Below are positions 32,761-44,286 of a stretch of DNA of 64,000 nucleotides, piece after piece; position 1 is the first letter of the stretch, and each line of letters starts with the position of its first letter. Under the pieces are notes generated by a model that saw only the letters and a program-made list of their open reading frames with translations, had not been told where the DNA came from and did no database searches. A program made the translations under genes and the position numbers. The stretch is taken from positions 1,882,662 through 1,946,661 of the forward strand of contig OY759724.1 in assembly GCA_963662715.1 (NCBI GenBank), given 5' to 3'. Source of the stretch: Candidatus Omnitrophota bacterium. GTDB lineage: Bacteria; Omnitrophota; Gorgyraeia; Zapsychrales; JANLHA01.

Positions 32761-32960
32761 GGTCATTGCCTCTTAAACAGCGGGAGCTGTCCCAAACAAA
32801 ATTATCGTATTTTTTTTAACCTTCCGTTTTAACCTTTATATTTTCAGATTCTTTTTGCACATTTTGGCGATATTTTTTTACAGATCGTGTGGACGAATGT
32901 TTTTAAAATATTGTTTAAAAACAAGAAATTTTTCTGTTCGTTAAGCTTGGCTTGATTTCC

Positions 32961-32984
32961 TGCCTAATGTTATACGTCGTTCCT
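32961..32984 (+). repeat. core-site-like repeat ctaatGTTATACgtcgttcc (copy 1)
   Basis: GTTATAC at 32969-32975 matches the integron core-site consensus class GTTRRRY in form; a 19-bp motif repeated 326 bp downstream. Confidence 0.5.
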
Positions 32985-33286
32985 GAATAACAAAGAATAA
33001 AACACAAAAGCGTCTTTTGTTAAAATTAAATAGCTGAAAATGGTCATTTTTTTAGATAATTAAGCTATTTTATCTCAAAAAGTTAAGTCTATTTAACTTG
33101 TTTGCGTATTTTTAAGGATACTTAAATAAATAATTAAAGCGACTTGATGATTAATGCGGAAAAATATTGGAAAATGTCAATAAATGTCAGCTTAAGGGCG
33201 CCTGAAGCCATTGACAATATTTGAAACATCAGTTAAAAAGAAGAAGCAATACTATAATTATCCATATATTTTTATTTTATAAAAAT

Positions 33287-33310
33287 TTACTAATGTTATA
33301 CGACGTCCCA
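33287..33310 (+). repeat. core-site-like repeat ctaatGTTATACgacgtccc (copy 2)
   Basis: GTTATAC at 33295-33301; about 160 bp upstream of the first cassette ORF; no paired inverse core found upstream. Confidence 0.5.
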
Positions 33311-33463
33311 ATTAACGGTATAATTAAGGGCAAATGCGACTTTGTTGCCGTAAAGCTGGCGCGAAAACAAGCATTTTTCAAATAAAATAAGGTATAATGA
33401 AAAAAACACACCAAGGGAAGGGAACGAAATCCCCGCCCTTAGTCACGACGTAGAATAATTGTT

Positions 33464-34027
33464 ATGTGTAAAATTATGAAAAATAATGGAATAAAAATAT
33501 TTGGATTAGTTTTGTTGCTTATTGCATGGGGCGCTGATTATTTCATACTTTCAAAAGCAAAAGAAAATCTGAAAAAAATTGAATTTGCGGTCGTAAATAG
33601 TGGGATCGTTGATAATAGCTCAAAGCTAAATTTTATAAAATATATAGAGCAAGAAAGAATTGAACCCAAATTATTGAGTCTTTCATACAGGGATAAACTT
33701 GAGGGCATTGCAGCTACAACTCTACTTTTAAAACAATCTGGAATCAAACCTGACTCGATAGATTCAAACCTCCTTAATGAGATCAACGCATTATTAAGAT
33801 TTGTTAATACCGCATATGACAATGGCTCTTCTTTGGAGCCAAAAGACATACAAAGGGATATTCGACATGAGATAGTTGTTCTCGAAAATCGAGTTCATAA
33901 ATACCTCACTAAATGCCTAAAACAATCGAAGGATAAATATAAAATATGGGATATTGTTTTTGTGGCAATGTATAGCATTGGAACAATTTTTTTGATTATC
34001 GGAGAAACTAAAGAAAAAAACACATAA
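33464..34027 (+). CDS. cassette 1: hypothetical membrane protein (TM at both termini)
   Basis: AT-rich ORF; stop TAA lies inside the attC inverse core ACATAAC. Confidence 0.5.
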   Translation: MCKIMKNNGIKIFGLVLLLIAWGADYFILSKAKENLKKIEFAVVNSGIVDNSSKLNFIKYIEQERIEPKLLSLSYRDKLEGIAATTLLLKQSGIKPDSIDSNLLNEINALLRFVNTAYDNGSSLEPKDIQRDIRHEIVVLENRVHKYLTKCLKQSKDKYKIWDIVFVAMYSIGTIFLIIGETKEKNT

Positions 34028-34081
34028 CAAATCGTTCCAAGCGGAGCCAAAAGAGCGCGCGCTTGAGCTCTGGCGTTATGC
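34022..34081 (+). repeat. attC-like site A (ACATAAC ... GTTATGC)
   Basis: 60 bp GC-rich imperfect palindrome bounded by an inverse-core/core pair, between AT-rich ORFs. Confidence 0.65.
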
Positions 34082-34101
34082 AAGAAATAGAAAGGTAAAG
34101 G

Positions 34102-41612: not shown

Positions 41613-41627
41613 CTTTAAAAGGAGTTC

Positions 41628-42758
41628 ATGATGAAATATAAAGTATCCATGTGGATTGGTGTGCTGTTGCTTGTTGGAATGAGCGTTGTCTCCTGTGGAA
41701 GAGGGGGTAATGAAAAAAACAACAACGCAATCAGTCCTGCGAATAACCTTGCGTCAACGGGTTCAGCCATGCCGAACGCAAGAAAAGTCCCGGAGATCAA
41801 CATAGACTTAGAACCGTATAATGCCGGTTTTTTTACGATACAAAAGCCGGCAGGATGGCAGATTTATATCGCGGGACATTGTTCGACACTGGCTTTTCTG
41901 ATGCAGGACCCTAATCAACCGTTGCGCCGGTGCTTTATGTTCAGCGAGATCGGCCCTTTTTATATCAGTGATATGCAAAAGACAATCGATTTGCAGTATA
42001 TGAACAGCGGAGGATTCCCTGTGGCATGGATTGAAATGCCGGTGGTCGATCCGCTCACGCCGGAGAATTTTTTGGCGCATTTTAAGGATATCGCCGACAC
42101 CGGACTTGCCCGTCAATTCATGTCCATGGTTCCGCAGCTTGAGAATATTCAGATTGTGTCTTCCGTTGAACAATCAAGCCCTTACGGCCAAAATTTTCAA
42201 ACTTCCCTGATGCGTGCGGTGTATGAGGAGAATGGAGCAGCCGGCGAAGGGTTGTTCCTTGTGTCCGTTGCGCCATTTATGCCGTTCATGAACGCGCCGG
42301 GAGGGGGCAATGCCTGTGCGTTGTCTTTTGTCGGTATCTCGGCGCCGCAGGACGAATTCGCGTCATTACAGGAGAGCCTTCTCTCCTGTGTGCGCAGTTT
42401 TAACTTGAGTTCGCAATATGTGCAAGATTGCCTTCGACAGCAAGCAGAGACATGGCAGGGAGTCATGAGAGCCGGTGAGACATTGAGTGAAACGGCTGAC
42501 ATTATTATGGAAGGGTGGGAGAGGCGAAACCAAACGGATGATATTATTGCAGAAAAACGCAGCGATGCAATCCTGGGGAACGAACGGTTATATGACCCGG
42601 ATACTGGACAAGTATATGAATTTGAGAGCGGATTTTATGATAAATATCATTTGGAACGCCAGCACTATAAACTATTCAATCTGCAACCGTTGCCTGACGA
42701 TGATTATACTCTTTGGACTGCCCCGGCCATGGACGGATATCGAGCGTTGGGCAATTAA
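41628..42758 (+). CDS. lipoprotein, unknown function
   Basis: signal peptide with lipobox VVSCG; host-like GC. Confidence 0.55.
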   Translation: MMKYKVSMWIGVLLLVGMSVVSCGRGGNEKNNNAISPANNLASTGSAMPNARKVPEINIDLEPYNAGFFTIQKPAGWQIYIAGHCSTLAFLMQDPNQPLRRCFMFSEIGPFYISDMQKTIDLQYMNSGGFPVAWIEMPVVDPLTPENFLAHFKDIADTGLARQFMSMVPQLENIQIVSSVEQSSPYGQNFQTSLMRAVYEENGAAGEGLFLVSVAPFMPFMNAPGGGNACALSFVGISAPQDEFASLQESLLSCVRSFNLSSQYVQDCLRQQAETWQGVMRAGETLSETADIIMEGWERRNQTDDIIAEKRSDAILGNERLYDPDTGQVYEFESGFYDKYHLERQHYKLFNLQPLPDDDYTLWTAPAMDGYRALGN

Positions 42759-42763
42759 GAAAG

Positions 42764-43552
42764 ATGAACGAAATTCAATATCCATCCAGCCGGCGGTTCA
42801 CATTTGATGTGGGCAGAATCGGGCGCGAGAAACATCATGTTAAAGCGCTGCTGGAAGTTGACATTACCGACGTGCGAAGTAAAATCAAGCAGAACCGGCG
42901 TTCCGGCAAAAAGAGATCATTCACGGCCTGGCTGGTTAAAGTAATCGCCGACTGCGTCGCCCTCCATCCTCCGATAAACGGAATAAACTGTCCCGGGAGA
43001 AACAGAGCCGTGGTGTTCGATGATGTCGATATCTCGCTTATTTTTGAGAAGGAGGTCAACGGCACACGAGTACCGCTTCCGTATGTGATTAGAAAAGCGG
43101 ATCAAAAAACACTCAGTCAGATATATTCCGAAATTGAATCAGTGAAATCTCAGGTCATTGAGAATGAAGGTGATTACGTGTTGGGGGAAAGGCATAACCC
43201 TTCGGGAATGAAGTTGTTCTCCGGCCTGCCGCAATGGCTTCGGCTGCTGTTAATGCGGATATTTGTTTTCAGCAGTCCATATCGATTAAAAAATATGATG
43301 GGTACGGTGATGGTCACTAGCTCCGGGATGATAGGCCATACAAGGGGATGGATAATCCCCTTTAGTATGCATCCTCTTTGTTTGGCTTTGGGTTCCTTGA
43401 ATGCGCAACCTGTAGCCTGTCGCGGAGAAATCAAAATCAGAGAGATCCTGCATTTGACTGTGCTGATTGATCATGATGTGATTGATGGGGTGCCGGCGGC
43501 AAAGTTTGTCGATGATTTGGTGAGGAAACTGGAAGGGGGTTTTGGTCTATGA
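42764..43552 (+). CDS. 2-oxoacid dehydrogenase acyltransferase (E2) catalytic-domain-only protein
   Basis: C-terminal DHDVIDGVPAAKFV catalytic His/Asp motif of the CAT-like E2 core; no lipoyl or E3-binding domains. Confidence 0.6.
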   Translation: MNEIQYPSSRRFTFDVGRIGREKHHVKALLEVDITDVRSKIKQNRRSGKKRSFTAWLVKVIADCVALHPPINGINCPGRNRAVVFDDVDISLIFEKEVNGTRVPLPYVIRKADQKTLSQIYSEIESVKSQVIENEGDYVLGERHNPSGMKLFSGLPQWLRLLLMRIFVFSSPYRLKNMMGTVMVTSSGMIGHTRGWIIPFSMHPLCLALGSLNAQPVACRGEIKIREILHLTVLIDHDVIDGVPAAKFVDDLVRKLEGGFGL

Positions 43553-43727
43553 ATGAAGAACCATTCTTGCTGACGATAGCCGGAATATTGGACGGGCCGC
43601 CGGACAAATCACTCAAGTCGGCCGTAACGCATGACGCGGCCTTTGAATAAAAAGCAAATCCTGCGCCACGCTTTAAGCGGGCATGTGAAATCCCGTTGGC
43701 AGGGATTTTAAGAGAAAGGAGGGGAAG

Positions 43728-44156
43728 ATGAGTTCGGATGTCAGACAAAATATCATTGAAATGTTAAGATTTCCTCAGCTGTCCAACCTGGCGACAATAA
43801 CGCTGGACGGCAAGCCCTGGACCCGTTATGTCATGATAAAGTCAGATAATGAATTTCACCTTCGGTCTGCCGTTTGTATTCATTCAAGAAAAATCAAGCA
43901 AATAGAGAAGAATCCGGAAGTTCATTTGACCTTTGGGATAAATGATCCTCAGGATCTAAGCAAGCCATACGTACAAATACAGGGGAAAGCCAGAATAACG
44001 ACCGACCAAAAGGAAAAAAGCGATTACTGGTTTGATATGCTTTCAGCTGTTTTTTCAGGGCCGGAGGACCCCGATTATTCTATATTGGTTGTTGAACCTT
44101 ACCGTGCAGAATTCATCGGGCCGGGATCAATGACTCCTGAAGTATGGGAGAAGTGA
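43728..44156 (+). CDS. pyridoxamine 5'-phosphate oxidase-like FMN-binding (general stress protein 26-like) protein
   Basis: split-barrel pattern LATITLDGKPWTRYV...IEKNPEVHLTF...YVQIQGKARI...ILVVEPYRAEF. Confidence 0.6.
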   Translation: MSSDVRQNIIEMLRFPQLSNLATITLDGKPWTRYVMIKSDNEFHLRSAVCIHSRKIKQIEKNPEVHLTFGINDPQDLSKPYVQIQGKARITTDQKEKSDYWFDMLSAVFSGPEDPDYSILVVEPYRAEFIGPGSMTPEVWEK

Positions 44157-44238
44157 AATCTTGTCATGCGTCACTCCATCGGCCCCGCCTCGCCACGATA
44201 CGGCTTCGGCCGGGGCCGCCGGATTCCTGGCGTTAGGA
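44156..44238 (+). repeat. attC-like site J (... GTTAGGA)
   Basis: same family as sites H and I (TCAC.CCATCGGCCCCGCCTCGCCAC..CGGCTTCGGCC); core-like GTTAGGA; the inverse core is degenerate. Confidence 0.5.
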
Positions 44239-44286
44239 TTTAAAAATATTTCATGATACTTAACCGTAATATTGACAGGAACGAAA

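Follow-up and report, generated by a model that had tools for sequence, protein, structure and literature searches.

Probable integrase-less integron cassette array, interrupted by an IS1111-type insertion sequence, in a Candidatus Omnitrophota chromosome

The cassette block and its attC sites

The DNA considered here is a 64,000-nucleotide stretch of contig OY759724.1 from a Candidatus Omnitrophota bacterium, referred to below as the window, and the nearest named homologues of its proteins also come from Candidatus Omnitrophota. Between positions 33,462 and 44,238 it contains nine attC sites, all on the + strand, which accompany seven discrete cassettes and a terminal block of three genes; besides these sites, the head of the array consists of one attI-like junction. 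The arrangement is very probably a chromosomal integron cassette array without its integrase, and two of its attC sites are occupied by copies of an insertion sequence (IS). The long open reading frames (ORFs) of the block all have the same orientation, and its GC content of 0.29-0.45 over 33.0-41.5 kb, compared with about 0.50 on both flanks, agrees with the AT-rich block seen in a preliminary description of this DNA. That description had placed an array of about 11 kb with at least 10 attC sites at 32960-44250. The array is real, but its start was set about 500 bp too early, since 32960-33461 is a leader without cassettes; the count arrived at here is nine attC sites plus the attI-like junction; and the size includes 2.5 kb contributed by the two IS copies in attC-D and attC-F, which had been overlooked.

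All cassettes are read on the + strand, and the cores of each attC are given here as R'' followed by R'. Cassette 1 (33462-34081) carries an ORF of no known family (33464-34027) and closes at attC-A (34022-34081; ACATAAC, GTTATGC). Cassette 2 (34076-35138) encodes a HEPN_RiboL-PSP protein (34102-35049) and ends in attC-B (35078-35138; GCATAAC, GTTATGC), which was placed by its palindrome and by the chain of junctions described below. The ORF of cassette 3 (35133-35939; ORF 35157-35858) belongs to Abi_alpha, matches the PADLOC candidate PDC-S47 and is followed by attC-C (35860-35939; GCATAAC, GTTATAC). Cassette 4 (35934-37875), again with an ORF of no known family (35952-36542), closes at attC-D (GTATAAC, GTTGTCT), which IS copy 1 splits into 36546-36558 and 37812-37875. 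Once rejoined, attC-D equals the uninterrupted sites (AACAACTCACTACA) of L001, a relative represented by a 3.35-Mb ENA contig (ERZ21869602, ctg94842l). The 325-bp cassette 5 (37870-38194) has no ORF and consists of a conserved non-coding module at about 38030-38118 in front of attC-E (38119-38194; AGACAAC, GTTAGAG). The same module (AAAATTGGGG ... CCCCAATTTTGA ... GGTTnAGCAAAC) lies just upstream of attC in two L001 cassettes and might represent a small RNA or a hairpin resembling a terminator. Cassette 6 (38189-40187) encodes a toxin-antitoxin pair of VapB (38264-38461) and VapC-PIN (38458-38853), and its attC-F (CTCTAAC, GCTAGAT) is divided by IS copy 2 into 38856-38868 and 40122-40187. An ORF with a weak Peptidase_M50 match (40215-40916) occupies cassette 7 (40182-41010), which ends in attC-G (40932-41010; ATCTAAC, GTTGGAT), while cassette 8 (41005-41612; repeat family D2) holds an ORF of no known family (41029-41496) and attC-I (41538-41612; ATCTAAC, ATTCAAT). 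The terminal block (41607-44238) has a normal GC content, contains ORFs for a possible lipoprotein (41628-42758), a protein with a 2-oxoacid_dh acyltransferase domain (42713-43552) and a PNPOx-like protein (43728-44156), and is closed by attC-J (44161-44238; TTGTCAT, GTTAGGA). A cargo of HEPN, Abi_alpha, VapBC, small unknown proteins and one ORF-less cassette is typical of such arrays.

The 5' end of eight of the nine attC sites is xxxxAAC, and GTTxxxx forms the 3' end of seven; F (GCTAGAT), I (ATTCAAT) and J (R'' TTGTCAT) deviate. The degenerate R' of attC-I and the degenerate inverse core of attC-J had been recognized in the preliminary description, as had the position of the stop codons, which fall inside R'' or a few bases from it in the cassettes ending at A, C, D, F and J. 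Because both inner core sites of the terminal 2.6-kb block, R' of attC-I and R'' of attC-J, are degenerate, its three genes are probably fixed cargo that has lost the ability to be excised.

The strongest signal that these palindromes are recombination sites comes from their junctions. When R' of each site was compared with the reverse complement of R'' of the following site at the four variable positions, 32 of 36 positions matched and seven of nine junctions were perfect. A chain as good as this arose in just 1-3 of 200,000 permutations of the inverse cores, and pairing inside the same integrated site reached only 19 matches out of 32. In L001 the chain is complete (36/36 positions, 9/9 junctions). 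The earlier proposal that each inverse core is the reverse complement of the cassette's own 5' G|TTxxxx thus holds at most junctions; the one of cassette 8 (attC-I) has a single mismatch. The mismatch that had been reported for attC-A, where GCATAAC was expected, disappears: GTTATGT at 33461-33467 pairs with ACATAAC at 7/7 positions, and cassette 1 therefore begins at 33462 and not near 32960. Two occurrences of GTTATAC, at 32969 and 33295, were considered as alternative cassette boundaries and rejected, as neither has a palindrome upstream or a match to the attC model and position 33461 satisfies the chain.

A home-made covariance model, built from attC-D, attC-E and attC-F together with nine sites of a related genome, was run over the whole window with filters off. 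It regained sites that were not part of its training at their exact boundaries (C, E=0.018; J, 0.12; A, 0.16; G, 0.83) and also matched the right part of the split attC-D; in the 64-kb window, it did not detect B or I at E<=10. Every match lies on the + strand and nothing below E=4 was obtained outside 34.0-44.24 kb, so there is no sign of a repeat scattered over the window. An Rfam search of the window returned nothing relevant; Rfam does not contain the attC model of IntegronFinder. The stem of the main attC family shows compensatory changes in 5 of 16 pairs and one bulged column on the R''/L'' arm. RNAalifold gave a structure for this family alone and none for all 18 attC of mixed families, because MAFFT misaligns the sub-families. 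With 60-80 nt, the sites are inside the 57-141 nt range of attC. Folding of the bottom strands, which had been proposed as a check, gave for the excised forms an R box and a spacer, then an L stem whose L'' arm has an extrahelical base, and a terminal loop (z=-3.7 for attC-C). Most sites, when folded in their integrated form, are no better than shuffled sequences, and the excised forms fold better. The architecture of attC, with R box, spacer, L box, extrahelical bases and terminal structure, has been described, and most studied sites have two or three extrahelical bases (PMC5027507); the main family here has only one clear extrahelical base. Taken together, the junction chain, the compensatory changes in the stem, the extrahelical base and the occurrence of the same attC family beside a real integron integrase (see below) uphold the integron-cassette interpretation of the preliminary description.

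Integrase search, leader and chromosomal locus

No integrase, intact or decayed, was detected in the 64 kb of the window, which extends 33 kb upstream and 20 kb downstream of the array. Pfam scans of 40 window ORFs found no PF00589 domain, and tblastn of the window with the integrase of L005, a complete metagenomic integron, and with IntI1 gave nothing. A hidden Markov model (HMM) of 120 IntI sequences of the clade had no match in the six frames of the window or of L001. These searches bear out the earlier statement that the leader and flanks are free of intI-like ORFs. Clusters of attC sites lacking integron-integrase (CALINs) were defined with IntegronFinder (Cury et al. 2016, PMC4889954); their threshold is a minimum of two attC sites and no integrase closer than 4 kb, and the array has nine. 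A possible intI remnant in the L001 leader, indicated by weak collinear tblastn matches, received no support from the clade HMM and was discarded.

Upstream of the leader, the window contains 32 kb of housekeeping genes (DnaE, HisS, AspS, PhoH, YbeY, RecO, 2-hydroxyacid dehydrogenase and YceI) that are syntenic with relatives. In L001, whose YceI is 58% identical, the gene order from DnaE to YceI is kept and is followed by a non-coding leader and then by an array, which lies at the corresponding YceI-flanked locus and has the same attC family, other cassettes and no integrase in view. The two arrays have no coding cassette in common and share only their attC sites and the approximately 100-nt module of the ORF-less cassette. 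In the more distant L091 (YceI 49% identical) the array is absent and YceI is directly followed by TatA, TatC and a PIN-PhoH gene, the counterparts of which lie at 56.1-61.5 kb of the window. As L091 has YceI joined to TatA, the 32-56 kb portion of the window is a variable interval, and the comparison with related genomes recommended in the preliminary description has thus revealed an empty site. L002 ends right after YceI. Within the variable portion (32034-56100), the part beyond the array carries genes for a nitroreductase, DUF6263, a B12-radical SAM protein, a methyltransferase and ankyrin proteins, in mixed orientation and with no attC match.

Complete integrons also occur in this group. 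L005 encodes a 457-aa integrase that scores 412 bits on TIGR02249 (cutoff 265) and lies about 180 bp from the first cassette, next to attC sites of the same family. Another complete integron is present in the Omnitrophota metagenome-assembled genome L145, and L009 has kept a 64-aa intI fragment beside attC of the same family. Of 52 single matches to the pattern CCGCTRAGTTCNTTGCGTT in a metagenome scan, L141 was the sole real array and the rest were due to chance. L141, a 12.9-kb ENA contig, has three attC sites at 4645-8240, including one A-type and one E-type site as in the window, and no integrase; it is possibly a further small CALIN with these attC families. A search of genome contigs with the transposase of the IS found no relative, and a search of genome contigs with a YceI alignment gave only distant matches (<=34% identity, unrelated phyla) of no use for synteny.

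The leader (32761-33461, + strand) is ORF-poor and AT-rich and ends in a candidate attI. It contains CTAATGTTATACG twice (32964-32976 and 33290-33302) and the motif ACGWCGT three times, and the attC model has no match in it. Leader and cassette 1 meet at CGTAGAATAATTG|TT (33449-33463, continuing as TTATGT), and the adjoining sequence is non-palindromic. The left side of this junction is conserved in L001 (CGTAGAATAAATG|TT), and the junction resembles the attI junctions beside real intI genes in L005 and L145 (CGTCTATTATATG|TT and CGTCCATTGAATG|TT). On account of this resemblance to L001, L005 and L145, 33449-33463 can be regarded as a putative retained attI.

Several further features were noted in and around the two leaders. 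A TTGACA at 33213, common to the window and L001, is a lead only. The L001 leader (11472-12341) contains three copies of a 39-nt unit (GGTATACCGTnTGAAGAGATATTGAAGGGCAAAAGGAAC) that are 90-92% identical and about 197 bp apart, plus degenerate copies; its last copy makes the attI-like junction, and the motifs of the window leader are only loosely alike. Directly after YceI and upstream of its leader, L001 has a c-di-GMP-I-GGC riboswitch aptamer (10712-10789; 59.4 bits, at the gathering score), which has no counterpart in the window. For the ORF at 32228-32760, called NUDIX in the preliminary description, Pfam gave no match at E<=0.01. Its reading frame seems to be shifted: the ATG at 32228, which has a good ribosome-binding site, and the long ORF beginning at 32266 are not in frame with each other, and this disagreement suggests a frameshift or a pseudogene. 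The ORF shows just a partial Nudix box (LKEETGF), and the gene is missing from L001 and L091. Far from the array, the region 5031-8039 comprises an AAA_22 ATPase ORF (5605-6465, - strand), a neighbouring ORF (5031-5603) and then about 1.5 kb without any ORF of at least 150 aa; it may be the decayed remnant of a mobile element.

An IS1111-type element in two attC sites

IS copy 1 (36559-37811) and IS copy 2 (38869-40121) are both 1,253 bp long, lie on the - strand and differ at two of 1,253 positions. The transposase ORFs extend over 36724-37776 and 39034-40086; the gene call for copy 1 starts at a later ATG and comprises 335 aa. Both copies are inserted between AACAAsTCA and CTACAGCGG, without target duplication and with the transposase gene opposed to the cassettes. 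The transposase matches PF01548 (DEDD_Tnp_IS110, E=1.2e-15), PF02371 (Transposase_20, E=2.8e-27) and the NCBIfam model NF033542, 'IS110 family RNA-guided transposase' (229 bits, cutoff 140). Downstream of its gene are 165 nt of non-coding sequence (36559-36723), compared with about 35 or about 80 nt upstream, depending on the start codon. The subterminal inverted repeats, perfect over 8 bp (ATGAAAAC) and matching at 14/18 positions overall, are shorter than the typical 11-13 bp and are followed towards the ends by extensions of 7 nt on the left (TGATAGT) and 3 nt on the right (GGA). A long non-coding region downstream of the transposase, 7/3-nt extensions and the lack of target duplication are features of IS1111 elements (PMC11187229).

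The IS family of the window is present twice in L001 at the same attC position, and the copies of the window, L001, L003-L008 and L009 all sit at TAACAAnnCA^. Relatives of the element also occur in complete integrons. The class 1 integron of plasmid NZ_CP044204.1 contains ISKpn4 at the homologous attC position, ATCTAACAATTCA^TTCAAGCCGAC, and in the same orientation. ISKpn4 is reportedly one of the IS1111-attC elements, together with ISPst6, ISPa21 and ISPa25, a group said to go back to work by Tetu and Holmes in 2008 and by Post and Hall in 2009. The transposase of the window is 23% identical to that of ISKpn4 (E=1e-12), and among the 25 best-scoring matches listed from a plasmid collection, identity does not exceed 38.6%. 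With 23% identity, the element would work like the IS1111-attC group but stands outside its clade by sequence. Judged from its sequence, it is a previously undescribed, deeply diverged attC-targeting element of the IS1111 type.

All IS variants have retained CTTGAC at their right end (in the window, 36559-36585 together with 37797-37811). In L003 (11150-11184 with 9920-9935) and L009, circularisation would set TTGACA 17 nt from the TAGTAT of the left end and thereby create a promoter at the junction, a feature of other IS1111 members; for the copies of the window and L001, the spacing would be about 22 nt.

The downstream non-coding region contains segments that correspond to the insertion site. 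In copy 1, two candidate guide segments lie at 36701-36710 and 36675-36686 and a junction-like AUGGAUGAU at 36604-36612, all on the - strand. The region includes UUAACAACUC, which is the complement of the right flank GAGTTGTTAA, and about 14 nt later CCGUUGUAGUGA, which reads in the sense of the left flank extended by three bases, CCGCTGTAG^TGA. The segments therefore follow each other as top-strand complement and then bottom-strand complement, spanning the insertion point, and this is the order reported for the seekRNAs of IS1111-type elements (PMC11187229). A 64%-identical relative of the IS (L003-L008) sits at CCGCTGGAT^TGmyTTGTTA and has UUAACAAAGC ... CCGUUGGAUUGA in its non-coding region. 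The attC sites targeted by the IS variants include CTACAGCGG-type and ATCCAGCGG-type sites, and guide and target covary among the variants (GTAG/GGAT and CTC/AGC). In the consensus fold of four variants, the guides face each other across one internal loop, which is flanked by two conserved stems, and a second hairpin bears AUGGAUGA(U), which equals the junction of right and left ends in the circle, CATGGA|TGATAG. These observations suggest that insertion of the IS is most likely guided by two segments of an RNA derived from the downstream non-coding region.

Interpretation and comparison with known systems

We assign a probability of about 0.85 to the reading of 33,462-44,238 as a chromosomal integron cassette array of the CALIN type. 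On this account, an IntI-type tyrosine recombinase would have added the cassettes singly by cutting between G and TT, with folded attC sites and the attI-like site at 33461|33462 as its substrates. Cutting at G|TT would leave at the 5' end of each cassette the six bases that complete its own attC. The 1,253-bp IS would have entered two attC sites later, after the array had formed. Because attC-D and attC-F are split and the cores of attC-I and attC-J are degenerate, the affected cassettes should now be immobile.

Several points weigh against this account or its parts. The matches of the covariance model to untrained sites are marginal (E 0.02-0.8), attC-B and attC-I were missed, and the model, which is not the attC model of IntegronFinder, was trained on sites of the array itself and of its relative. 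The z-scores of single excised sites are modest (-0.8 to -3.9, except for -5.5 in attC-J). The similarity of the attI-like junction extends over 15 nt and is not significant alone, and a promoter scan yielded 4 sites where 3.5 are expected by chance, which gives no signal of a Pc promoter. The terminal three-gene block, with its normal GC content, may in part consist of native DNA instead of cassette cargo, and the covariation between guides and targets of the IS comes from three lineages only.

GC-rich imperfect palindromes behind stop codons, several of which fold no better than shuffled sequences, would also be expected from REP-like or terminator-like repeats unrelated to integron recombination. 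We consider this barely credible, as the palindromes occur, within the 64 kb, only in a single block of 10 kb and in a single direction, the T-tract that marks intrinsic terminators is missing from them, and attC sites of this family are found beside true IntI; moreover, such repeats cannot account for the complementarity along the junction chain. The preliminary description had left open whether the array is a CALIN or the distal part of a longer sedentary chromosomal integron with its integrase and attI beyond the window. Very long sedentary arrays do occur, and no integrase is in view here, but a non-palindromic attI-like sequence directly precedes the first cassette, the leader follows on 32 kb of conserved housekeeping genes, no attC match is found up- or downstream of the block within the window, and L091 joins YceI directly to TatA. 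Owing to this head of its own, the upstream synteny, the lack of downstream attC sites and the empty site in a relative, the CALIN half of that alternative is favoured, and a distal segment appears very unlikely.

A different question is whether the array could be an active secondary platform, with attI and attC and no integrase in cis, that is served in trans by an integrase elsewhere in the 3.36-Mb genome. Two diverged genomes (58% identity in YceI) each have, at this locus, an array that lacks an integrase; the attI-like junction is common to both, and no coding cassette is shared. If the integrase was already absent from their common ancestor, cassettes must have been exchanged after its loss. 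Seven junctions are still perfect, and integron integrases are common in the lineage. The independent loss of intI in each lineage explains these data equally well, however, and among the top 120 clade homologues listed there is no integrase from the source contig or from that of L001; two attC sites are split by the IS and two have degenerate cores. We therefore see a platform served in trans as possible, though rather improbable. More speculative still, and doubtful to a greater degree, is a combined picture in which an orphan platform between YceI and TatA in diverged Omnitrophota-type genomes trades cassettes through a distant integrase and is policed or frozen by an RNA-guided IS1111-type lineage whose guides track the local attC variants.

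Returning to the array as a CALIN, both it and the IS are further members of already known kinds, and the array itself is fairly ordinary. Like other CALINs, it has at least two attC sites in the same orientation at cassette-sized spacing, promoterless small ORFs that include toxin-antitoxin and defence-like genes, and no nearby integrase. In contrast to them, it keeps an attI-like head and a 700-bp leader, and its interval is also occupied in the diverged L001, with wholly different cassettes. It is a well-resolved integrase-less example from a poorly studied, mostly uncultured lineage, and the occupied and empty sites in relatives make it useful for questions about the origin of CALINs and their continued activity. 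Complete integrons from Omnitrophota and related candidate phyla (L005 and L145, with integrases of about 430 aa named 'integron integrase' by NCBI) share with the window the attC family xxxTAACAAGTCA ... GCGTTAGAx, the attI junction style CGTnnAwTnnwTG|TT and cassettes that point away from the platform. They have intI 180-240 bp from the first cassette, whereas the window has none in 64 kb. Sedentary integrons of the Vibrio type are similar in being chromosomal, in having lineage-related attC sites and in carrying toxin-antitoxin, ORF-less and unknown-function cassettes; the array of the window is much shorter, mixes two or three attC sub-families and lacks an integrase.

The interest of the locus comes chiefly from the conserved integrase-less platform and from the IS. 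SeekRNAs have been demonstrated for the IS1111-attC group (PMC11187229), and the element in the window would extend RNA-guided targeting of attC beyond class 1 integrons. Its variants offer compact, naturally reprogrammed pairs of guide and target for testing, and insertion of an IS into attC bears on how cassettes become fixed. In common with the IS1111-attC group, it inserts six bases after the AAC of R'', in the same orientation and without target duplication, and has subterminal inverted repeats with 7-nt and 3-nt extensions and a downstream non-coding region with the same order of guides. It differs in that the transposases of the group are at least 74% identical to each other (about 46% for the outlier ISPa25) and that of the window is 23% identical to ISKpn4, and in an inverted-repeat core of 8 bp instead of 11-13. 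Finally, the members of the group reside in class 1 integrons of Proteobacteria, whereas the element described here inhabits chromosomal arrays of uncultured, Omnitrophota-type hosts.

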